From a bacterium (GTDB taxonomy: Bacteria; Krumholzibacteriota; Krumholzibacteriia; G020349025), in the NCBI GenBank assembly GCA_031362565.1, contig JANLSU010000032.1, positions 1-30,067 of the forward strand: 30,067 bases of DNA, given 5' to 3'. Positions 6,204 through 28,930 of the stretch are shown piece by piece. Under the pieces are notes generated by a model that saw only the letters and a list, made by a program, of their open reading frames with translations, made no database searches and was not told the origin of the DNA. How positions within the stretch are numbered: position 1 is the first letter of the stretch; each line of letters opens with the position of its first letter. The position numbers were made by a program, and so were the translations under genes.

Positions 6204-6701
6204 GCGTTCTCGACGCCCCCCGGGTGCAATCTAAAATGGAAGTGCGCCGCGACGCCAGGCGGCGCCACCCCCCGGCCCGGGGCCCACCACGCCGTTGCCG
6301 GGGTGGGGAAGACCACCCGGACCGGCGCCAAATCGGCGCGCGTCGATCGCTTCGTAGATTTCCCACGCGCCCTGCGTGATGCCCGGTTGCGTCTCGTGAC
6401 GTCGCGCGCCCTGGCGTCTGCGGTGCGATCGGGCGCCGGCCGTTCACCTTGGACAACGCGGAACCGCGACGATGATCACGCTATCTCTGGAGTTGGTGAG
6501 ACGGTTTGCGTTATAATTTTGCGAGCACACGATCGTTTGCGGTGGCACTGCCATCGCACCTCGTTCGGACCGAGCCCACCGTCACAATAGAGGCATTCCT
6601 CGCCCCGCGCCCGTGCGAGCTCGGCACATTGTTGTTTGTTCGCTAAGCATCGACTCCGAAGTCATTGCCGTCACACCGCGATTGCTCTCAAGGATGGACC
6701 C

Positions 6702-9700
6702 ATGTCGAAGTGGAATGGTGGGCGTTCGGACCAGGGCATGAGGCCGGGTCGGCGCCACAAAGCCCGCATCGGGCGTTGGATTGCGCTGGCGGGATTGTTT
6801 GCGACCAGCATCACGGCCATACCCTGCGCCTGGGCGGGTGCTGGGTCGGCGCGTCCGATCGACCGTGACGCGCTCACGCCGGCGGAGCGGCAGAAACTGA
6901 ATGGGATCGCGGCCGCTGCCCCCAACGACCTGCTTGACGCCGGGTTCGACATGTTCGCAACCGCGTCCGGCAGCACCGGCGAAAAACCGCAATCCAAGAT
7001 CTGGTACCACGACGGCTCGTATTGGGGCGCGTTCCGTGGCTCGGACGGCGTTGCGATCTATGAAAAGCAAGGCTCGACCTGGGTTCACGGCACATTCGCG
7101 AACGCCCTGCTGTCGACGGGTGGCCACGCCGACGTGAAGTGGACCGGCACGAACCTCTATGTGCTCGTCTACAACACCACCTGCAATGTGTTCGAGTTCA
7201 CGTACAACAGCGCGGCGCGGACCTGGACTCGGACGAGCGGATTCCCGGTCAAGGTGCCCAACCCCGCGGGCTCGGAAACCATGGTGCTCGAGTCGGATTC
7301 GACGGGCCGGCTATGGCTCGTGGCTGAGGGCGGCGGCAATATCAACGCCTACTACACGACGAGCGCCGACCGCAAGACGTGGGCGACCACACCCGTCATG
7401 CTGCAGACCGGCGTCGGTGCCGATGACATCTGCTCGATTGTCGCCTTTGGCGGCAACAAAGTCGGAGTCTTCTGGTCGGATCAGAATCGCGATGACTTCG
7501 GATTCCGCATCCATACCGATGGCGATTCGCCCGCGACGTGGGCAACGAAAGAACTGGTGGATCAAGGCTCCGGGCACGCCGACGACCATCTCAATCTCGC
7601 GTACGATTCGAGTGGCCGCGTGTTTGCGATCACCAAGGACGCCTCCGATCGCATGACTGTGCACCGGCGTAACACCAACGGCAGTTGGTCTCACGTCACG
7701 GACGTTGTGGGCGGGAACGCGACCCGCGGTATCATCATGGTGTCGGAGTCGGATTCCAAGCTCTACATCTTATACACGCGTTGGGGTGTGTCACCGGAAC
7801 GCATCGAGTACCGGGTCGCCGACATCAACATCATGGCCTTCGGCGGCACGGTGCAGTTCATTACTTCGTCCGCCAACTTGAACAACGTCACGGGCATGAA
7901 ACAGATTCTGCCGCCCGGCAGCTTGTGCGCCGCGGCCGAAAACGGCAGCCATTTGCTGTACAACAGCTTCGGCAGTCCGCCGCCGGGCAGCAACCCGCCG
8001 CCACCGCCGCCCACGCCGCCGGTTGCACCCGCGAACGTCTTGGCGTCGTTGCTCAACGGCACACAAATTCACATCACCTGGACCGCGGCCGCGGGCACGA
8101 TCGACGGCTACAATATCTACCGGCAGTTGGACGGCGGCAGTCTGACCAAAATCAACGCCGCCCTGGTCGCGACGCTCAATTTCACCGACACTGCACCGCC
8201 GACGGGGAATCTGTGTTATCTGGTCCGCTCGCAGCGGAATGGCTTGGAGAGCATTTCGTCCACGGCTTCGTGCCTGGCGTACGCTCCGCCGCCGCCGCCA
8301 CCGCCCGCGTCGCCCACGAACGTGCTGGCGTCGTTGTTCAACAGCACGCAGATCCAAGTCACTTGGACCGCTGCCACGGGCACGATCGACGGCTATAACG
8401 TTTACCGGCAGTTGGACGGCGGCAGTTTCGCCAAAATCAACGCCGCGTTGATCACCCTCCTGGCTTTTACCGATACGGCGCCGGCGACCGGCAACCTCTG
8501 TTATCAGATCCGCTCGCAGCGGAACGGACTGGAAAGTGCATCCTCCGGGGCCTCGTGCTTGTCGTATGCGCCACCGCCTCCGCCGCCGGTTCCGCCGACG
8601 GACGTCGTGGCGTCGCTGTTCAATAGCACAGAGATCGAAGTCACGTGGACGGCGGCCACAGGCACGATCGACGGCTACGACATCTATCGGCAGTTGGATG
8701 GTGGCAGCTTCACCAAGATCAACGGTGCTTTGGTGACGTTGCTCACCTTTACGGACTCGGCACCGCCGACCGGCAACCTTTGCTATCAAGTCCGGTCGCA
8801 GCGCAATAGTCTCGAGAGCACGCCATCCGCGGCTTCATGCCTGGCGTTCGCACCGCCTCCGCCGCCACCACCCCCGCCGCCGGCTGCGCCGACAGACGTT
8901 TTGGCGTCGTTGTTGAACGGCACGCAGATTCAAATCGGTTGGACGGCGGCCGCGGGCACGATCGATGGCTACAACATCTATCGGCAACTCGACGGCGGTG
9001 GTTTCGCCAAGATTAACGCCGCCCTGATTGCCGCGCTCGACTTCACGGACCCGGCGCCGCCGACCGGGAACGTGTGCTACGACGTGCGCTCACAGCAAGG
9101 CACCATGGAGAGCGGGCCGTCGACGGCCTTCTGCCTGGACTTCGCACCACCGCCGCCACCCCCGCCACCGGCTGCACCGACGGACATTCTGGCGTCGTTG
9201 TTGAACGGCACGCAGATTCACGTCACGTGGACGGCAGCCGCGGGCACGATCGACGGCTACAACATCTACCGGCAACTGGACGGCGGTAGTTTCGCCAAGA
9301 TCAACGGCGCCTTGATTGCGGCGCTCGACTTCACGGACCCGGCGCCGCCGACCGGGAACGTGTGCTACGACGTACGCTCACTGCAAGGCCCCTCGGAGAG
9401 CGGGCCGTCGACGGCGTCCTGCTTGGACTTCGCGCCCCCGCCGCCACCCCCGCCACCGGCTGCACCGACGGACATTCTGGCGTCGTTGTTGAACGGCACG
9501 CAGATTCAAGTCATGTGGACGGCGGCCGCGGGCACGATTGACGGCTACAACATCTATCGACAGTTGGACGGCGGTAGCTTCGACAAGATCAACGGCTCTT
9601 TGATTGCGGCGCTCGACTTCACGGACCCGGCGCCGCCGACCGGGAACGTGTGCTACGACGTGCGCGCGCAGCAAGGCGTTTTGGAGAGCGGACCCTCGAC

Positions 9701-11027
9701 CGCCTCCTGCCTGGCATTCGCACCGCCGCCGCCGCCACCTCCTCCGCCGGCGCCAACCGAACCGCAGACTCTGACTGCGACCTTGGTCACCGTACCGGGG
9801 AGCGCGGTCCCGGGTGCGGGAGCGTGGCCTTTCGATGAAGGCAGCGGCCAGTCGTTCGCGGATGCCACCGGCGCGGGCCACACCGGCCAGCTTGGCACGG
9901 CTGCCGGCGTCGACACCGCCGATCCGCTCTGGGGCGCGGGCGTAAACGGCACAAGCGCGTTGGTCTTCGACGGTTCGAATGACCGCAGCGCAATCCCCGA
10001 TGCGGCCGACCTGCATTTTGCGGGCAGCTTCAGCATCGAGGCTTGGGTGAAGCGTGATGTCATCGGGGCGAAGCATTGCATCGCCAGCAAGGGCGACAGC
10101 CAGCACCGGAACTTCTGGGTGGTCATCGATGGGTCGAATCGCATCGATTTCCGCTGGGAAACCGCCGGTGGCGGCAACCACGGGGTGACCTCCAACACAA
10201 TCATCGCCGATCTCAACTGGCACCATGTCGCATGTGTGTACGACGCAGTGGTGCATCAGAATCGCATCTATTGCGACGGGCTGCTGGTCAAATCGGCGAC
10301 CGACAACGGCACCCCCATGACCAGCACCGATCCGGTGTATATCGGAGCGCGGTTGTCGAGCGGCAAGCTGACCGATTACTTCCGCGGCAGCATCGACCAG
10401 TTGCGGATCGCGCCGGGAACTCTGTACTTGAGCAACTTCATTCCGGCGACCTCGTTCGGCGGCGGACCGCCGGTGTCGGCCGTGCAGCTCGCGTGGCAGC
10501 CGCCACTGTCGGGTTCCATTGCCGGCTACAACGTCTATCGCCAAGTCGATGGTGGCATGTTCGCGAAGTTGAACGGAGCCCTGATCGGCGCCCCGAGCTA
10601 CGTCGACGGCACGCTGCCGGCCGGCACCCTGTGCTATCAGGTGACGGCGGTGGACGCCATCCCGCAAGAGGGACCGGCTTCGACCGAAGCCTGCGTCAAT
10701 CAGAACGCTGCCAAGGCTGCCACCAAGGTGACGTCGACGACGGCACCGCATAACGACGCCCAGCTGTCGGCGGGTCCGAATCCGTTCAATCCGACAACCA
10801 CCGTTTCGTTCTCGCTGCCGCACGCGGGCGTGATCCACCTCGCCATCTTTGACATCCGCGGCGAACGGATTGTGACGCTGGCCGAAGGTCTGCATGCCGC
10901 CGGTGCGCACACCGTAACTTGGAACGGCCATGACCAACACGGCAGAGCCGTGGCTTCCGGCGCGTACTTCCTGAAGCTCGACGGTGACAAGATCTCGCAG
11001 CACCGCCGTATCGTGCTGCTGAAGTAG
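6702..11027 (+). CDS. Large secreted protein: N-terminal beta-rich (propeller-like) domain, six FN3-like repeats with polyproline linkers, LamG-like domain, split seventh FN3, FlgD/T9SS-like C-terminal domain
   Basis: ATG 6702 after AAGGA; signal-like segment; repeats of W...GYNIYRQ...F.D...CY.V; LamG features (WPFDEGSG, FSIEAWVK, WHHVACVYD, FRGSIDQLRI); PNPFNP...IFDIRG...WNG...SGAYFLKL tail. Confidence 0.9.
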   Translation: MSKWNGGRSDQGMRPGRRHKARIGRWIALAGLFATSITAIPCAWAGAGSARPIDRDALTPAERQKLNGIAAAAPNDLLDAGFDMFATASGSTGEKPQSKIWYHDGSYWGAFRGSDGVAIYEKQGSTWVHGTFANALLSTGGHADVKWTGTNLYVLVYNTTCNVFEFTYNSAARTWTRTSGFPVKVPNPAGSETMVLESDSTGRLWLVAEGGGNINAYYTTSADRKTWATTPVMLQTGVGADDICSIVAFGGNKVGVFWSDQNRDDFGFRIHTDGDSPATWATKELVDQGSGHADDHLNLAYDSSGRVFAITKDASDRMTVHRRNTNGSWSHVTDVVGGNATRGIIMVSESDSKLYILYTRWGVSPERIEYRVADINIMAFGGTVQFITSSANLNNVTGMKQILPPGSLCAAAENGSHLLYNSFGSPPPGSNPPPPPPTPPVAPANVLASLLNGTQIHITWTAAAGTIDGYNIYRQLDGGSLTKINAALVATLNFTDTAPPTGNLCYLVRSQRNGLESISSTASCLAYAPPPPPPPASPTNVLASLFNSTQIQVTWTAATGTIDGYNVYRQLDGGSFAKINAALITLLAFTDTAPATGNLCYQIRSQRNGLESASSGASCLSYAPPPPPPVPPTDVVASLFNSTEIEVTWTAATGTIDGYDIYRQLDGGSFTKINGALVTLLTFTDSAPPTGNLCYQVRSQRNSLESTPSAASCLAFAPPPPPPPPPPAAPTDVLASLLNGTQIQIGWTAAAGTIDGYNIYRQLDGGGFAKINAALIAALDFTDPAPPTGNVCYDVRSQQGTMESGPSTAFCLDFAPPPPPPPPAAPTDILASLLNGTQIHVTWTAAAGTIDGYNIYRQLDGGSFAKINGALIAALDFTDPAPPTGNVCYDVRSLQGPSESGPSTASCLDFAPPPPPPPPAAPTDILASLLNGTQIQVMWTAAAGTIDGYNIYRQLDGGSFDKINGSLIAALDFTDPAPPTGNVCYDVRAQQGVLESGPSTASCLAFAPPPPPPPPPAPTEPQTLTATLVTVPGSAVPGAGAWPFDEGSGQSFADATGAGHTGQLGTAAGVDTADPLWGAGVNGTSALVFDGSNDRSAIPDAADLHFAGSFSIEAWVKRDVIGAKHCIASKGDSQHRNFWVVIDGSNRIDFRWETAGGGNHGVTSNTIIADLNWHHVACVYDAVVHQNRIYCDGLLVKSATDNGTPMTSTDPVYIGARLSSGKLTDYFRGSIDQLRIAPGTLYLSNFIPATSFGGGPPVSAVQLAWQPPLSGSIAGYNVYRQVDGGMFAKLNGALIGAPSYVDGTLPAGTLCYQVTAVDAIPQEGPASTEACVNQNAAKAATKVTSTTAPHNDAQLSAGPNPFNPTTTVSFSLPHAGVIHLAIFDIRGERIVTLAEGLHAAGAHTVTWNGHDQHGRAVASGAYFLKLDGDKISQHRRIVLLK
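8025..9750 (+). repeat. Six tandem ~285-bp intragenic repeats (FN3-like unit plus poly-Pro linker)
   Basis: Units start near 8025, 8310, 8592, 8886, 9174 and 9462; units 4-6 are very similar at DNA level. Confidence 0.9.
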
Positions 11028-15761: not shown

Positions 15762-15912
15762 CTTGATCGGGTCTTGGACTGTCGAGGCGCTTTGCGGATG
15801 CCTGTCAACCGACGCGACAACCTCGACACTCGCTAGCCGGACCTTCCCGTGAACTGTGCCGACAAGAGCCCACTTTCCTGGGTTGGCTGGTCGCTTGCCC
15901 GCGTGCTAACCT

Positions 15913-16176
15913 ATGGAAGTCGTTCGCGGGCGCTACGTCGAATTCGGAGATCACGCACGGCGCCGGATGCGCTCTCGGCGCATTTTGCTCGAGGCTGTGA
16001 TGCAGACGCTGCAAGCACCAGAAATCGAACATCTCGCCCTGTTCCAGTCAGAATTTGGCGAGCACCGCCGGATCGCCGAGCGCGGATTCGAAGACGGCCG
16101 CATCCGCGTCGTCTTCGAGATGTCGACGAGGGACATCTTTGTTGTGACGTGTATGTGGGTCGTCTTGGACAATTGA
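15913..16176 (+). CDS. DUF4258-like protein (putative toxin)
   Basis: F.DHARRRMRSRRI....V...L..P...IRVVFE...VVT pattern; directly upstream of a DUF2283 gene. Confidence 0.75.
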   Translation: MEVVRGRYVEFGDHARRRMRSRRILLEAVMQTLQAPEIEHLALFQSEFGEHRRIAERGFEDGRIRVVFEMSTRDIFVVTCMWVVLDN

Positions 16177-16184
16177 GGGTGGCG

Positions 16185-16469
16185 ATGTCTGACCCTACGA
16201 TCGAAATCTCGTTGGATGCCCGCTCCCGGGCGGCGTACTTGCGGCTGTCGGGGAGTGCGGTTGGACGCACTCATCAAGTGCAGCCGGAACTGATGTTGGA
16301 TACCGATCAGGCCGGCGATGCCGTTGGTATCGAGATCCTGAGCATGCAGGCTTTCGAGTTTTTTATCGCCAATCAGCAAGATCTGTCCCGCCGGTTTCAC
16401 CTGCGGCAACTGTCTCCGGAGGACCTGGAGACTGTGCGCGCCTTCTTCGAAGAGAAGAAAGCGTCGTAA
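16185..16469 (+). CDS. DUF2283-family protein (putative antitoxin)
   Basis: D....AAYLRL...T......LMLDTDQAGDAVGIEIL; ATG 16185 after GAGG; the ORF-track 5' extension to 15849 is spurious. Confidence 0.8.
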   Translation: MSDPTIEISLDARSRAAYLRLSGSAVGRTHQVQPELMLDTDQAGDAVGIEILSMQAFEFFIANQQDLSRRFHLRQLSPEDLETVRAFFEEKKAS

Positions 16470-16519: not shown

Positions 16520-16552
16520 GGCTCTCCTTGCTACGGAACACGGGAGAGTCGC

Positions 16553-17806
16553 ATGGTGGTCTCGACTCGATCGATCACGCCGTCTCCGGACCGCTCGCCA
16601 GCCACTCCGGCAACGCCGCCGGTGCCGTGGTTCTTGTGGGCCGTCGTTCTTGCGTCGACGAGCGTCATCATCGGTCTCCTGTGGGATATCTCCTGGCACC
16701 GGACGATCGGGCGCGACCGCTTTCTGACCCCAGCACACATCGCGATCTACCTGGGCGGATTGGTCGCAGGTCTCTCGTGCGGCTGGCTCGCGCTGCAAAC
16801 GACATTTGGGCGCAACGACGCGGCGCGCGCCGCCCGCGAAGGCGGCATCGGCGTGTGGGGATTCCGCGGCTCGCTCGGCGGCTGGATCTGTATTTGGGGC
16901 ACGTTTGCGATGCTGACATCGGCGCCATTCGACAATTGGTGGCATGGCGCCTATGGACTCGACGTCAAGATTCTGAGCCCGCCGCATGTCTTGCTTGGCC
17001 TCGGTATGATTGGAATCGAGATCGGCGCCATGATCATGGTGCTGGCGTACCAGAACCGATTCGCGCCGGCCTATTCCGGACCGCGGTCGATCGTGTCGCA
17101 GCCAAGCGGACGGGCGCACGAACGCGTTCTTGTGTGGATGTTCATCTATACGGCCGGTATCGCGCTGCTCATGGGGGCAACTCTGTGCATGGAGTACATC
17201 GGCTTCCCGAATGCGTGGCACAATGCGTTGTTCGCCCAGATTTGTGCCGGCGCGTTTCCGGTCTTGCTGGCGGCGGTGGCCCGCGCCGGGCGACTCCGCT
17301 GGTCGGCGACCGCGATCGCCGGGGTCTACACGGGCATTACGCTGCTCATGATGTGGATCTTGCAGTTGTCACCCGCGACGGCGAAGCTGGCGCCGATCTA
17401 CAACCCGGTAACGCACATGGTGCCGCCGCCGTTTCCGATGTTGTTCTTCGTGCCGGCGATCGGTTTCGACCTGCTCGTGCGCCGCTTCGAGGGCCGCAGC
17501 GACTGGTTGCTGGCGGTCATTCTAGGAGTCATGTTTGTCGCCGTGACCTGCACGTTGCACTGGTTGTTCGCCAAATTCCTCATCTCACCGGCGGCGCGCA
17601 ACATCGTCTTTGGCGCCAACCAGTGGGACTACAATTCCCGGCTTGGACCCTGGCGCTACGAGTTTTGGGATTTAGACCTCGACAAGAGCCGAAACTGGAG
17701 CCCAGCGCTCTACGCGCGCGGCATCGGAATCGCGCTCGGGCTCGGCATCCTGTCGACGCGGCTCGGACTCGGCTGGGGCCGTTGGATGTCGAGGGTGTTG
17801 CGATGA
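16553..17806 (+). CDS. Polytopic membrane protein with two D-x3-H...H metal motifs; putative PmoC/PmoA-like fusion
   Basis: Roughly 10 hydrophobic segments; WDISWHRTIGRDRFLTPAH and FDNWWHGAYGLDVKILSPPH. The CDS is solid; the functional call is inference. Confidence 0.8.
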   Translation: MVVSTRSITPSPDRSPATPATPPVPWFLWAVVLASTSVIIGLLWDISWHRTIGRDRFLTPAHIAIYLGGLVAGLSCGWLALQTTFGRNDAARAAREGGIGVWGFRGSLGGWICIWGTFAMLTSAPFDNWWHGAYGLDVKILSPPHVLLGLGMIGIEIGAMIMVLAYQNRFAPAYSGPRSIVSQPSGRAHERVLVWMFIYTAGIALLMGATLCMEYIGFPNAWHNALFAQICAGAFPVLLAAVARAGRLRWSATAIAGVYTGITLLMMWILQLSPATAKLAPIYNPVTHMVPPPFPMLFFVPAIGFDLLVRRFEGRSDWLLAVILGVMFVAVTCTLHWLFAKFLISPAARNIVFGANQWDYNSRLGPWRYEFWDLDLDKSRNWSPALYARGIGIALGLGILSTRLGLGWGRWMSRVLR

Positions 17807-19410
17807 CAGCGCAGCTTCGCCGCGCGGCGCACGTCGCGCGGACCGCGATCCTCGCCACCGCCATCGTCGCGCTCACCGGAATGCAGAGCATCTGCCTGGC
17901 GCACATTGGCAGCCCGGACACTTGGTACGAGGGACCGGCCGGCGCCTACCCGTTGCGGGTGATTGTACGGGCGCCGAGCGTCGTACCCGGTCTTGCGGAC
18001 ATCACCGTGCGGGTCTTGGACGGCCACGCGACCCGCGTCACCGCCGCGCCCTACATCTGGAATGGCGGCGACACCGGCGCACCGCCGCCCGACGTCGCCA
18101 AGCCGGTACCGGGCGATGCGCAATTGTTTTCCGTGCCGCTCTGGTTCATGACGCCGAGCTCGTACAGTGTGCGGGTGAATGTCGAAGGGGATCGCGGCTC
18201 CGGAACCGCGGTGGTCCCCGTTCAAGCGGTCGCACTCCGGCGTCTCGGCATGCAGAAAACCCTCGGCGTGACGCTCGCGATTCTGGGCATCTTCCTGGTC
18301 GTGCTGGCGCTCAGCATCGTGTACGGCGCTGCGAAGGAAAGTGGTGTGCCGCCGGGCGCAACCAGTGGTGCGAACAGCAAGGCCCGATCGCTGTACGCCG
18401 TTGCTGGTGCAGCCGTAATTCTGGCCGTTGCCGCGACCGGCGGGCGCTTCTGGTGGAGCTCCGTCGATCGGGATTTCCAGCGCACCATCTACAAGCCCTT
18501 CACGTCGGCGGCCCGGGTCATCGAGCGTGGGACCGCGCGCGGGCTCGATTTCGAGATCACCGATCCCGTGTGGCGCGGGCGGCGCTGGTCGCCGCTCATT
18601 CCGGATCACGGCAAACTGATGCATATGTTCTTGATTCGGGAGCCCGGGTTCGATGCGATCGCGCACCTGCACCCGGTGCCGACGGATTCGAGCCACTTCG
18701 AAGTCTGTATGCCGCCGGTGCCCGAGGGGCAGTATCACGTCTATGCAGACATCGTGCACGAAAGCGGCTTCACGCGAACGCTGACGGCAACGGTGGATGT
18801 GCCGGCGCCCAACGCATCGAACACCGCAAGCGCGACCGCCGCCGCGGCGGATACAGCGGCCGCGTTCCATACCGATCCGGACGACTCGTGGTACGTGAGC
18901 CCATCCGGCGTTCAGGCAGCGTCACCGGGCGAGCGGGTGGCGCTCGCGAACGGCGCGACGATGACGTGGGAGGCGCCCGATGCGAACCTCGTCGAAGGAC
19001 GCGACGCCGGCCTGCGCTTCGCGGTGCGCAACGCCGACGGTACGGCCGCCGCAATCGAACCCTACATGGGCATGCTCGGTCACGCGATCGTGCGCCGCGA
19101 CGACGGTTCCGTCTTCGTGCACTTGCACCCGATCGGCACCGTTTCGATGGCGTCGCAGATGGCGCTCATGATGCGCGCTCCGAGCGACAGCGTTCCCGGC
19201 ATGCTCGGCCGCCGCATGAGCGCGCCGGGTCACATGGAGCACATGATGGGTGGGTCGATGAGCGGACTCCCTCACGAACCGGGCGTCGTGATGTTCCCGT
19301 ACGGATTTGCGCAAGCCGGGGCCTATCACATTTGGGTCCAGATCAAAATGAACGGGCAGATTCTGACGGGAGCCTTCGCGGCGACGGTGAAGCCGCCGCC
19401 GCCAGCCTGA
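17803..19410 (+). CDS. Exported, membrane-anchored His/Met-rich protein (signal peptide, mature N-terminal His, two central TM helices, two HLHP domains); PmoB-like topology
   Basis: ATGA overlap with upstream gene; ...SICLA|HIGSP; two TMs at about aa 154-177 and 196-218; HGKLMH, AHLHP, MLGH, VHLHP, GHMEHMM. Confidence 0.8.
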   Translation: MTAQLRRAAHVARTAILATAIVALTGMQSICLAHIGSPDTWYEGPAGAYPLRVIVRAPSVVPGLADITVRVLDGHATRVTAAPYIWNGGDTGAPPPDVAKPVPGDAQLFSVPLWFMTPSSYSVRVNVEGDRGSGTAVVPVQAVALRRLGMQKTLGVTLAILGIFLVVLALSIVYGAAKESGVPPGATSGANSKARSLYAVAGAAVILAVAATGGRFWWSSVDRDFQRTIYKPFTSAARVIERGTARGLDFEITDPVWRGRRWSPLIPDHGKLMHMFLIREPGFDAIAHLHPVPTDSSHFEVCMPPVPEGQYHVYADIVHESGFTRTLTATVDVPAPNASNTASATAAAADTAAAFHTDPDDSWYVSPSGVQAASPGERVALANGATMTWEAPDANLVEGRDAGLRFAVRNADGTAAAIEPYMGMLGHAIVRRDDGSVFVHLHPIGTVSMASQMALMMRAPSDSVPGMLGRRMSAPGHMEHMMGGSMSGLPHEPGVVMFPYGFAQAGAYHIWVQIKMNGQILTGAFAATVKPPPPA

Positions 19411-21238: not shown

Positions 21239-22459
21239 TCACGGACTCGCCTGCAGGCGTCGAAAACGAAGTTCCGCGATCAGATCCGCAGTGATTTTGG
21301 GGGGGAATGGCAGCGTTCCACTTGCCAGCCGCTCGCCGAGCGATGCCAGCCGTGCGAGCAAGCCATCGAGCACCTTCTCGGCGCCGCGGGCCGGGAGCCC
21401 AATTTCCGACGCAAACTCCAGCAGGTGTTTGCGGGAGATGCCCGAAGTCCGGCCGAGCATCGACAGCGCCAGGCTCGTGTCGCCATACGGCACCGTCGAG
21501 GGAAGGTCGTATGCCGGCGAGATGCGCCATTCCCGGTCGGAGGTGGCGAGGATCGAAAGGTTCTTGGCGTGCACGTCACCGTTCCCCGTCAGCCACGCGA
21601 AGCAAATTTGTTGGTACAGGGCGCGCAGCGCGACCGGCCGCGCCGCGCACCGGTCGGCGAGCGCGCCGACCACCTGTTCGTACGTCACGCTGTACTTGTC
21701 GGCAGGCCATCGGCCCAGCACCTGGCACGCGTCCTCACATGCTAACGCCACGCTCGAGCCATCACGCTGGGCAATGCGGTCGAATCGGCGCACCAGCAAT
21801 CCGGCCTGCCCGTCGGCGTCGTGGACAACGGTGGCTCGCGCGCAAGATAAGCGCGTTTCGTGGGCGAGTTGCAGGAAGAAGGCCTCGTTCTCCACGACGT
21901 GCGGGAACTCGGGTGGATTGAGCTTGAGCAGGTAACGCTCACCGGCGCGCGCCAGCGGCACCGAGATCATGCGTGCGGATACTTTGTCCTGCACCCCTGG
22001 GAGCGCAACGGCATCGACGATGCCGGTGTCGGTGAGCACGTCCGCGAAGCGGACGTCGGACCACTCGCGTTCCACGGCAAGAAGCGGACGGGCCGGCGTG
22101 GCCGGCTGGCCGCTTGGCACGACTTGGACGTCGCCGATCGTATCGTGACCAACGGCGAGTAGCAGCGACAGCTCGTCGTCGGCGGAAGCCTTCACCGAGC
22201 GGCGAAGCCCCGATAGTCTTCGGCCTTCCGGTAGAAGGCCGGTGAAGAACGGCGGCACCGCTCCGGCGGTGCTGCGGACCGGCTTGTCGCTCAACGGCAA
22301 GGTGGTTGCAACCGCAGGTCTGCCCGATGCGAGGTATTCGGCGCTGTACGAGAATTCGATGCCGTCAGTCTGACGTCTCAATGTCGCCGCATGGATGCCG
22401 GATTTGTAAACCGCCGCTTCGACAACTGTTGTCAGTGCTTCGAGATGGGACGTGTTCAA
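21239..22459 (-). CDS. hipA: HipA-family toxin (kinase) with N-terminal HipA-couple domain
   Basis: PPFFTGLLPEG, LPGVQDK, YLLK, ENEAF, RRFDR, EDACQ, GNGDVHAKN, SPAYD. Confidence 0.92.
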   Translation of the reverse strand: MNTSHLEALTTVVEAAVYKSGIHAATLRRQTDGIEFSYSAEYLASGRPAVATTLPLSDKPVRSTAGAVPPFFTGLLPEGRRLSGLRRSVKASADDELSLLLAVGHDTIGDVQVVPSGQPATPARPLLAVEREWSDVRFADVLTDTGIVDAVALPGVQDKVSARMISVPLARAGERYLLKLNPPEFPHVVENEAFFLQLAHETRLSCARATVVHDADGQAGLLVRRFDRIAQRDGSSVALACEDACQVLGRWPADKYSVTYEQVVGALADRCAARPVALRALYQQICFAWLTGNGDVHAKNLSILATSDREWRISPAYDLPSTVPYGDTSLALSMLGRTSGISRKHLLEFASEIGLPARGAEKVLDGLLARLASLGERLASGTLPFPPKITADLIAELRFRRLQASP

Positions 22460-26239: not shown

Positions 26240-28930
26240 ATGCCCCTCGCCGCAGGTCAGAAGCTCGGTCCATACGAGATCGTCGCGCCGCTCGGCACGG
26301 GCGGTATGGGCGAAGTGTATCGCGCCCGCGATACGCGTCTCGGGCGCGACGTGGCAGTCAAAGTGCTGCCGCCCGAAATGGCTGTCGATCCCGAGCGCCG
26401 GGCGCGTTTCGAGCGTGAGGCGCGCGCCGTCGCCGCGCTCAACCATCCGAACATCTGCGTGATTCACGACGTCGGCCGCGAGGGCGCGATCGACTACCTC
26501 GTCATGGAGCTGGTCGAAGGCGACTCACTCGCGCAGCGCCTCGGCCGCGGGCCACTGGCACTGGCCGATACACTGCGCGTCGGCGCCGAGATTGCAGAAG
26601 CTCTGGATCGGGCGCATCGCGCCGGCATCATCCACCGTGACCTCAAGCCCGGAAACATCATGCTGGCGCGGTCCGGCGCCAAGCTCATGGACTTTGGGCT
26701 GGCGCGCGCCGGCGGAGCGTTGATGGCCGGCGGCGATGGCACGCAACTCGCCACCATGAGCCGGCCCGTCACCGCCGAGGGGCATATCGTCGGCACATTC
26801 CAGTACATGGCGCCCGAGCAGCTCGAAGGCCGCGAGGCCGATGCGCGCAGCGACGTGTGGGCGCTGGGCGCGACGCTTTATGAAATGGCCACGGGCGAGC
26901 GGCCGTTCGTAGGCGACAGCACGGCGTCACTCATCGGCGCCATCATGCGCGCCGAGCCGCGGCCGTTGGCGGAGCGTGCGCCCGCAACACCGCCGGCGCT
27001 CGAGCGCATCATTCGCACCTGCCTCGCCAAGGATCCGGAGCAGCGCTGGCAATCGGCAGGCGACGTGGGCCGAATGCTGCGCGGACTCGACACGTCGTCG
27101 ACCTCTTCCGGTGTGGTGCCCGCACCGCGAGCGCGTCGTGCACGCCGCGAATTGTTCGCGTGGGTGCTCGCCGTGTTGCTACCGATTGCCGCGTTCGCGG
27201 TAGCGCGGCTCATGCGCTCGCCGGCGCGCGAAGGCGATCCGCTGCGCGTCGCGCTCACGCTCCCCAAAGGCGCCGTGTACCACTTCTCCGGTGACTTCGC
27301 CGGTCCGCCGGCGATCTCGCCGGACGGCAAGCGCATTGCGTTCGTCGCGCTCGACGATCAGCACGGCGCGTCCATCTGGGTTCGCGAATTGGACCGCCTC
27401 GACGCGCATCCCGTGCCCGGCACCGACGGCGGGAGCTTTCCGTTCTGGTCGCCGGACGGTGGTTCGCTCGGCTTCTGCGCCGGGCTCGCGATCAAGCGGG
27501 TGGACTTGGACGGTGGAGCGGTCGTCACGTTGGCGGAAGCCAATGCATTGCGTGGTGCGAGCTGGGGGCTCGACGGTTCCATCGTCTACACGCCGAATGC
27601 CCTGGGTGGACTCTTTCGCATCCCGGCGGCCGGTGGAACGCCGGTCGCGCTCACGGTGTGCGATACCACGATGGAGACGACGAACCGCTTCCCACAGGTC
27701 CTGCCTGGAGGGAAGTCCGTCCTCTACTACTCGGGTGACCACCGCGATCCGTTGTCGAAGCGCTCCGGGATGTTCGCGGTCTCGACGGACGGCAAGACGA
27801 AGCAGAAACTGCTCGACGCCGCTTGCAACGCGGTCTACGCGAACGGCCACTTGTTGTACTTGCAGGACAGCGTCCTGTTCGCGCGGCCGTTCGACGCGCA
27901 CGCGCTGCGCTTTACCGGTGATGCGGTGCCGACGCGCGAACGCATCCAACCCGACCCGTCGACTTGGACGAGCAACCTGAGCGCCTCCGAGAACGGCCGC
28001 CTGGCGTATGTGCTGCTCGGCCCGACGTTCGGCAGCCGCCTCGAAGAGCGCGGGCGCGACGGCACGCGGCTCCGTCTTCTGACCTCGTCGGCCAACCACA
28101 CGGCGATCTATTTGTCGCGCGACGGGCGCACGCTCGCCAATGCGTCGCAGGCGTCGGCGGCGGCGGACATCTGGATGATCGATGTGGCGTCCGGCCGCCG
28201 GACGTTGGTGCTCGGCGGCAACCCCGACGAGGACTCGCCGGCGCTTTCAACGCGTGGGGATCGGGTCCTCTTTGGTTCGAACCGCGCCGGGCGGCACTAC
28301 CGGATGTTTCTGACGCGGAGCGATGGTGCGGGCGAAGCGCGAGAAATGCTGCGCAGTTCTCGCGACATCCTGCCCGTCGACTGGTCCACTGACGGCCGCT
28401 TCGCGCTGGCGATGGTGGGTGACGCGGTCTCTGGAATTTGGGATTCGCTGGTCGCGGTGGAACCGGACGTCGCCGGTTCACGCCATGTCCTGTTCGTTCG
28501 TCCCAACTCGGCCGGCGACGCGCGCCTGTCCTACGACGGTCATTGGCTCGCGTACACTGACGGTTCTTACGGTGTTTCACGCATCGTCGTAATCCCGTTT
28601 GCGCCGGGCTGGCCCAGCGGCACCGCTCCGACGGGCCGCTGGCAAGTGAGCACGTCGTTCGGAACGAATCCGCGCTGGGCCGCGAGCGGGCGTGAGATCG
28701 TCTTCGCGCGCTTCGACGGCACGATCGTCTCGGTCGACGTCGTGCCCGGGTCCGAAGGCTTTCAAGTCGGCACCGAGCACGAATTGTTTCGCGCCCCACT
28801 CCGGCCGCAGACCGCATCCATGGAGATGAGTGCCGACGGGCAGCGCTTCTATATCAACGCGCTGTCGGGTGACGACGTGAGCCGGCTCGCGGTCGTGACG
28901 AACTGGGCGTCGGAGTTGGCGAAGAAGTAG
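26240..28930 (+). CDS. Ser/Thr protein kinase with TM helix and TolB/PD40-like beta-propeller sensor
   Basis: [28 protein letters not shown] segment; repeated SPDG / PFWSPDG / WS.DG blades. Confidence 0.95.

Follow-up and report, generated by a model that had tools for sequence, protein, structure and literature searches.

The window analysed here is a stretch of 30,067 nucleotides from a bacterium assigned to the Krumholzibacteriota (contig JANLSU010000032.1, assembly GCA_031362565.1). It carries two overlapping genes on the forward strand, whose products are probably a very distant relative of the copper membrane monooxygenases (CuMMOs) and its partner. Gene 1 (16553..17806, +) is an open reading frame (ORF) for a polytopic membrane protein of 417 residues and ~10 helices; a Shine-Dalgarno-like GGGAGAG can be read at 16542..16548 (+), and the ATG starts 4 nt downstream. 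The best-supported reading of its product is a single-chain fusion of the core of PmoC with a PmoA fold. Gene 2 (17803..19410, +) encodes a partner of 535 residues, comprising a signal peptide, a beta domain, two transmembrane helices and two further beta domains, and its start lies over the stop of gene 1 in an ATGA overlap (17803..17806, +) that points to translational coupling.

The feature that first links the gene 1 protein to PmoC is a pair of metal-binding triads. Triad 1, W44-D45-x3-H49-x12-H62 (16682..16738, +), which also includes R54-D55, is the counterpart of the CuC site, and triad 2, F126-D127-x3-H131-x13-H145 (16928..16987, +), is the positional counterpart of CuD, with Asp instead of Asn. 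An earlier reading of this DNA, made from its letters alone (the sequence-only reading), had drawn attention to the two strings, and both WDISWHRTIGRDRFLTPAH (D45, H49, H62) and FDNWWHGAYGLDVKILSPPH (D127, H131, H145) are found in the translation of gene 1 exactly as it gave them; the interval to which it assigned them, 16682..16987, runs precisely from W44 (codon 16682-16684) to H145 (codon 16985-16987). In PmoC of Methylococcus capsulatus the CuC ligands are Asp156, His160 and His173 and those of CuD are Asn227, His231 and His245, with Arg165-Asp166 as second-sphere residues at CuC, according to PMC12576850, and the ligand numbers given in the sequence-only reading agree with that text. We assembled an alignment of 19 PmoC/AmoC ORFs from IMG/VR contigs, their identity being confirmed against PmoC in the PDB (E-values down to 5e-145), in which D128/H132/H145 (+4, +17) and N199/H203/H217 (+4, +18) are invariant. 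The same two sets of offsets occur in gene 1, as had been claimed, and the surrounding WH.TI.RD..TP.H context is indeed common to gene 1 and PmoC/AmoC.

The triads are shared by a large family. Among 8,000 candidates at least 6,965 are homologues of gene 1 at an E-value of 0.001 or better, and at least 1,785 turned up among cluster representatives at 50% identity; this is a very large family without a name, and our search of the full-text literature, with subscription journals and supplements outside its coverage, found neither the family nor a PmoC-PmoA fusion described. The ligands might have been variable among these homologues, as the sequence-only reading had allowed. Instead, all six are kept in each of the 120 closest cluster representatives, and DHHDHH is read in 217 of the 233 homologue rows that cover all six columns. 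Across 150 representatives at 50% identity, with rows covering a given column as the denominator, each residue is kept in 90-98%: D45 in 114/116, H49 in 105/116 and H62 in 116/120 for the first triad, and D127 in 136/139, H131 in 130/140 and H145 in 134/144 for the second. The CuD-type triad thus keeps its spacing and both histidines, and the exchange of Asp for Asn is itself a family trait, found in the same 136 of 139 rows. The sole longer form among 7,996 candidates, P0391 (806 residues), proved to be an artefact and no fusion, a frameshifted gene 1 read into a gene 2 whose signal peptide is intact.

A subgroup of six rows (P0185, P0234, P0254, P0256, P0259 and P0268) departs from this pattern in a concerted way: H49 is changed to Glu or Asp, H131 to Gln, Thr or Leu, and H145 to Gln, with D45, H62 and D127 kept. 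Because the three ligands change together, the two sites would seem to act as one functional unit; members of the subgroup may bind a different metal or may have lost the second site. Does the family, then, bind copper at all? One alternative is that both sites hold another metal (Zn, Fe, Mn or Ni), or a metal with a structural role only, in a non-copper enzyme or transporter that shares its ancestry with PmoC. With Asp for Asn at site 2, both sites offer a carboxylate plus two histidines, with which Zn and Fe are bound too, and the D-[E/D]-H and D-[Q/T/L]-Q patterns of the variant subgroup show that the ligand set is plastic. Crystal structures of particulate methane monooxygenase (pMMO) have, moreover, shown Zn at the CuC position. 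The alternative is nevertheless improbable, given that the partner protein resembles copper proteins and that the homologous sites of pMMO and of ammonia monooxygenase (AMO) hold Cu in native membranes, as stated in PMC13058606 and PMC12576850.

The relationship to PmoC/AmoC is seen most clearly when families, rather than single sequences, are compared. As a single sequence the gene 1 protein has no relative in the PDB. A profile built from 49 family members (A1), searched against all PDB sequences, gave five matches at an E-value of 10 or better, every one of them an AmoC or PmoC (E 5e-4 to 0.019) and aligned on the first motif. The Pfam AmoC model likewise gives sub-threshold matches in 11 of the 49 members (best E 0.0011), other Pfam families recurring in two at most, and across the whole 5.4-Mb genome that model finds a single place, 16685-16756, at 12 bits (cut-off 26.7). 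Profile-profile alignment (hhalign) of the gene-1 family with the 19 PmoC/AmoC sequences returned a single alignment of 99 columns (Prob 84%, E 7.6e-6), which pairs D45/H49/H62 with D128/H132/H145 of CuC and D127/H131/H145 with N199/H203/H217 of CuD. Each of the six residues is thus matched to a CuC or CuD ligand in the comparison that the sequence-only reading had proposed as its check, and R54-D55 fall on the second-sphere Arg165-Asp166. The first hairpin aligned alone with the CuC hairpin of PmoC gives Prob 95% and E 2.7e-8, and on this sequence evidence it is homologous to PmoC. The homologous unit is an N-terminal domain of four helices (residues ~24-172; 16622..17068, +) that corresponds to the metal-binding core of PmoC/AmoC and is built from two repeated helical hairpins; the alignments begin at about residue 100-127 of PmoC.

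The near-symmetry of the two triads had led the sequence-only reading to suggest an ancestral internal duplication, and this idea gains support. Hairpin 24-88 aligns with hairpin 104-172 over 56 columns (hhalign within the gene-1 family, Prob 88%, E 3e-6), with a single one-residue gap that accounts for the difference between x12 and x13. In eight control comparisons, for which other helical hairpins of the protein were taken, Prob did not exceed 2.4%, and it is because the two hairpins match each other while the controls do not that we consider the duplication supported. No repeat signal was found between the CuC and CuD hairpins of PmoC itself (Prob 0.1%), in an alignment that is of low diversity.

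The AlphaFold2 (AF2) model of the gene 1 protein has a predicted local distance difference test (pLDDT) score of 92.7 and a predicted template modelling (pTM) score of 0.91, and shows the four helices of the N-terminal domain at residues 26-51, 60-85, 108-134 and 143-170. In each triad, two of the residues lie one turn apart at the end of a helix and the third at the start of the next, so that the triads occupy equivalent turns, one between the first and second transmembrane helices (TM1-TM2) and the other between the third and fourth (TM3-TM4). Since both sit at equivalent turns, the model places them on the same membrane face and not, as might have been feared, on opposite ones. The numbers of Lys and Arg in the short loops suggest an N-in topology, in which case the triads would be periplasmic, and probably they are.

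The remainder of the chain, residues 172-417 (17066..17803, +), forms a C-terminal domain for which the model predicts a PmoA/AmoA fold over its whole length. Both this fusion and the conserved partner gene had escaped the sequence-only reading. When the model was searched with Foldseek, the top seven matches, which concern this domain, were all PmoA chains (prob 1.00, E 0.019 to 0.11, none reaching E 0.001), the identity of the chains being confirmed with the PmoA/AmoA profile. Gene 1 has no match to PF02461, whose curated threshold is not reached, and a Foldseek search against BFVD gave no match at an E-value of 0.001 or better.

Could the likeness to PmoC be fortuitous, an unrelated helical membrane protein having acquired two D-x3-H-x12/13-H strings by chance or convergence? 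Such an explanation can appeal to the fact that no curated family threshold is reached and that no PmoC chain is among the matches listed in the fold searches. Against it, 200,000 shuffles of the gene 1 protein yielded two such strings not once (and one string in 1,458 cases), the PDB matches of the profile are exclusively AmoC/PmoC, the hhalign E-values are those given above both for the whole core and for hairpin 1 alone, and the neighbouring domain provides an independent match, to PmoA/AmoA, that stands well clear of the next fold. We regard coincidence as very improbable and largely refuted.

The product of gene 2 is best described domain by domain. A signal peptide (residues 1-33) with an A-x-A-like end is followed by His34 (17803..17904, +), and then by an N-terminal immunoglobulin-like (Ig-like) beta-sandwich (residues 37-147; 17911..18243, +) and two transmembrane helices, taken from the secondary structure of the model (residues 152-179 and 190-228; 18256..18486, +). 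A middle beta domain (residues 232-336; 18496..18810, +) has invariant D268, H269, H274, H288 and H290 in the motif PDHGKLMH...AHLHP, and the C-terminal, CrdA-like beta domain (residues 372-535; 18916..19407, +) has M424, H427, H440 and H442 in YMGMxGH...VHLHP, together with a Met/His-rich insert. Between the last two domains hhalign finds a repeat relationship (Prob 84.5%, E 6.9e-6), and both have a His/Met motif that closes with HLHP. His34 is invariant in 37 of 37 aligned partner homologues, within the motif AH[VI]GSPD, and the predicted cleavage site would make it the N-terminus of the mature protein. The partner family is a large one without a Pfam family. In the AF2 model (pLDDT 88.4) its domains match the fold of a solved CrdA/CopC-like periplasmic copper protein, and Pfam gives sub-threshold matches to CopC in 4 of the 37 members (best E 0.067) and to YtkA-like in 3 (best E 5.6e-4).

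The partner invites comparison with PmoB, the third CuMMO subunit. Both families have an invariant His directly behind the signal peptide (H34 in the partner, H50 in PmoB), and the order of a beta domain, two transmembrane helices and one or more beta domains is that of PmoB, a likeness of layout only. The HxH motifs of the partner are located in its second and third domains.

The two genes are found together in a wide range of bacteria. A scan of species-representative genomes with a degenerate DNA motif gave at least 120 loci, and flanking DNA was taken for 80 of them. A gene-1 homologue is present in all 80 and the partner is adjacent in 70. In 69 of these it lies downstream, in the orientation of gene 1, and in the remaining one, a Cyclobacteriaceae locus (L128, 2469-5327, -), the partner gene lies upstream of gene 1. 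Ten loci lack a partner: four are truncated by a contig end (L077, L084, L091 and L145), three are weak or partial matches (L078, L119 and L134), and in three a full-length gene 1 has no adjacent partner (L075, L080 and L088). In a Mongoliibacter metagenome-assembled genome (L148) a second gene-1 homologue (6270-7034, +) follows the pair. Judged by record titles, the carriers are Acidobacteriota, Gemmatimonadota, Bacteroidota, Verrucomicrobiota, Methylomirabilota and others, with Dyadobacter (Bacteroidota) and Silvibacterium strains among those in culture.

A quick tree of 70 rows, from which 11 partial rows were excluded, clusters by phylum (9 label changes, against 30.8 in shuffles), and places the gene 1 protein of the window with Gemmatimonadota; its sister pairing has a value of 91 in the Shimodaira-Hasegawa-like approximate likelihood ratio test (SH-aLRT). 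Sampling of 151 genomes from the phylum of a Gemmatimonadetes-titled genome showed the family in 32, and sampling of 201 from the window's own phylum in just one (G000). Rarity in its own phylum, taken with the Gemmatimonadota grouping, could reflect horizontal acquisition or a patchy distribution. The sequencing runs listed for the locus comprise five DNA rows from two freshwater sediment studies, one of which may be where the window comes from, and no RNA run.

Beyond the partner, no neighbour is conserved across the 80 loci, the best being a short-chain dehydrogenase cluster in 9 of them, and a copper-homeostasis family was found in none of the 129 flanking ORFs scanned at the 70 paired loci. 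Some loci of Acidobacteriota and Gemmatimonadota (L116, L135, L070, L089 and L096) have a short-chain dehydrogenase beside the pair, and in two of these 4 bp separate the partner gene from the start of the dehydrogenase, which has the same orientation (L116:3874-4698, +; L135:173-994, -). In two Gemmatimonadota loci a SURF1-family gene, of cytochrome oxidase assembly, lies just 3' of the pair (L081:4313-5047; L103:6018-6800). In the window itself, the upstream neighbour of gene 1 is an ORF at 15849-16469 (+), the C-terminal part of which matches DUF2283 (E 2.9e-6) and which ends 84 nt before gene 1. Farther away are a gene for a HipA-type kinase (21239-22459, -) with HipA_C and Couple_hipA domains, probably the toxin of a toxin-antitoxin system, and an ORF of 1,463 residues (6636-11027, +) with fibronectin type III, Laminin_G_3 and a C-terminal FlgD Ig-like domain, whose product is probably a large protein that is secreted or displayed at the surface. 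The 30 kb also contain three genes for Ser/Thr protein kinases (1091-2131, +; 26240-28930, +; and 1-936, -), one of them fused to PD40/WD40-like repeats.

The reading that we favour, and regard as probable, is that the gene 1 product is a single-chain and very distant member of the CuMMO superfamily with a copper-protein-like partner. A number of results weigh against it. The gene 1 protein belongs to no Pfam or NCBIfam family (no Pfam match at E-values up to 1), and it does not reach the curated threshold of 26.7 bits of PF04896. Hairpin 2, aligned alone with the CuD hairpin of PmoC, falls in register, yet not significantly (hhalign Prob 0.2%, E 0.29); in the whole-model fold searches no PmoC chain for the N-terminal bundle was among the matches listed; and alignment of A1 with 28 PmoA/AmoA sequences is weak (hhalign Prob 12%, E 0.0024), although it runs through 178 colinear columns. 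Nor is the full architecture of subunit C present, only 25 residues preceding the first core helix. On the side of the partner, homology to PmoB finds no support: hhalign against 17 validated PmoB/AmoB sequences gave Prob 5.6% over 33 columns, there is no Pfam match, PmoB was not among the matches listed in the partner fold searches, and residues 37-147 hold nothing equivalent to the CuB-site HxH, which in PmoB is the invariant H154-x-H156. Its closest folds are copper-resistance and copper-trafficking proteins, which fit copper handling as well as they fit catalysis. In the genomes, no pathway gene, such as one for a reductase or an alcohol dehydrogenase, is a regular neighbour of the pair, and the genome of the window gave no AmoA or PmoB match, the blank for PmoB being weak since control genomes are blank for it too.

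These last points bear on the most serious rival, a copper-handling module without catalysis. Here the partner, through its N-terminal His domain and its CrdA-like domains, would take up copper in the periplasm and transfer it to the Asp-His-His sites, and the gene 1 protein would move, store or deliver it (in uptake, in efflux or in the metallation of other enzymes) in the manner of CopC/CopD or YcnI/YcnJ, which are known pairs of copper proteins; the CuMMOs would then descend from such a copper handler. The faint CopC and YtkA-like matches in the partner family and its Met/His-rich insert speak for this, as does the lack of conserved metabolic genes beside the pair. It has to contend, however, with the equal lack of copper-homeostasis families among the flanking ORFs, with the fact that a simple chaperone needs neither a PmoA-fold domain nor both catalytic-site triads, and with the absence of CopD or P-type transporter folds from the matches listed for gene 1. 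We consider copper handling alone unlikely, but it stays a serious rival because of the CrdA/CopC-like folds of the partner and the missing pathway genes.

We return, therefore, to the proposal that the pair belongs with the CuMMOs. In these enzymes the active site has been placed at CuC/CuD in subunit C, each site being made of two His plus Asp or Asn, according to PMC13058606. The first four helices of the gene 1 protein would represent the metal-binding core of subunit C (PmoC/AmoC) stripped of its N-terminal helices, and its last 245 residues the fold of subunit A (PmoA/AmoA), the order C-then-A being that of the xmoCAB operon. The two hairpin repeats would create two adjacent Asp-His-His sites where PmoC has CuC and CuD, both facing the same side of the membrane, which is probably the periplasmic one. 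The gene 2 product would lie in the periplasm, anchored to the membrane, its N-terminal His exposed and two of its domains CrdA-like and rich in His and Met. Together the two proteins may form a copper-loaded membrane complex, in which the partner could capture or hand over copper, and possibly electrons, and the Asp-His-His pair could bind one or two Cu ions, activate O2 and oxidise a probably hydrophobic substrate. That copper is the metal of the sites seems to us reasonably likely, and we have similar, moderate confidence that the two gene products associate physically. A copper-dependent oxidase or oxygenase is favoured because it is exactly the CuC/CuD residues and the subunit-A fold that are retained; oxygenase or oxidase chemistry as such we put forward only tentatively, as a possibility that falls short of being probable.

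A bolder version would have the pair be a working two-gene copper membrane (mono)oxygenase, an ancient branch of the CuMMO superfamily new to description, in heterotrophic Acidobacteriota, Gemmatimonadota, Bacteroidota and Verrucomicrobiota, with a symmetric Asp-His-His pair that preserves the duplicated ancestor of CuC and CuD. We hold this to be doubtful as it stands, yet the consequences would be considerable. Native CuMMOs, which are three-subunit trimers, are very difficult targets for expression and mutagenesis. The gene-1 family, which is common among phyla of soil and sediment, supplies a minimal relative from nature, with both sites and the subunit-A fold on one polypeptide, a visible duplication, and cultured hosts that are not methanotrophs; if the bolder version were true, a single chain and cultured carriers would provide a tractable model of the disputed CuC/CuD site. 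The place and manner of O2 activation in methane and ammonia monooxygenases have long been in question, and current work points to CuC/CuD (PMC13058606). The family opens to test the chemistry of the sites, the origin of the CuMMOs from a symmetric pair of metal-binding hairpins that was perhaps a copper handler, and a possible overlooked activity in oxidation or copper handling.

How does this pair compare with known systems? Stand-alone pmoC genes provide one comparison, the likeness being a subunit C without A and B: 66 virus-classed IMG/VR stretches (L003-L068) carry the canonical CuC motif of PmoC/AmoC, with an AmoA match in none of the five records checked, and are consistent with stand-alone pmoC on phage-like contigs. 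In contrast to gene 1, however, these encode a full-length, canonical and unfused PmoC with Asn at CuD. Helicobacter pylori CrdA and the CopC-type proteins differ from gene 2 in that sequence similarity to them is below threshold and in that the gene 2 product is itself anchored in the membrane by two helices, and the CopC/CopD pair differs in its membrane protein, that of gene 1 being PmoC/PmoA-like and not CopD-like. The S components of energy-coupling factor (ECF) transporters were also counted among the closest known systems.

The comparison of greatest interest is that with the CuMMOs themselves, pMMO (PmoCAB) and AMO (AmoCAB), represented in Pfam by PF04896 (AmoC), PF02461 (AMO) and PF04744 (Monooxygenase_B). 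The differences are marked. Gene 1 combines C and A in one polypeptide, lacks the ~100 residues with which PmoC begins, ahead of the four-helix core, has Asp for Asn at the CuD position, and displays a repeat symmetry that goes undetected in the PmoC alignment used; it lies below every Pfam threshold, and its hosts belong to heterotrophic phyla. The partner, for its part, is not detectably a PmoB: nothing in it matches a cupredoxin, its first domain lacks an HxH, and of its three beta domains two are like CrdA. Yet the pair shares with the CuMMOs the identical spacing of both subunit-C triads, the second a counterpart by position, the WH.TI.RD..TP.H context, the second-sphere Arg-Asp, a subunit-A fold that comes straight after the C core, just as the genes are ordered in xmoCAB, and a third component with a signal peptide, a predicted N-terminal His in the mature protein, a beta domain, two transmembrane helices and further beta domains.

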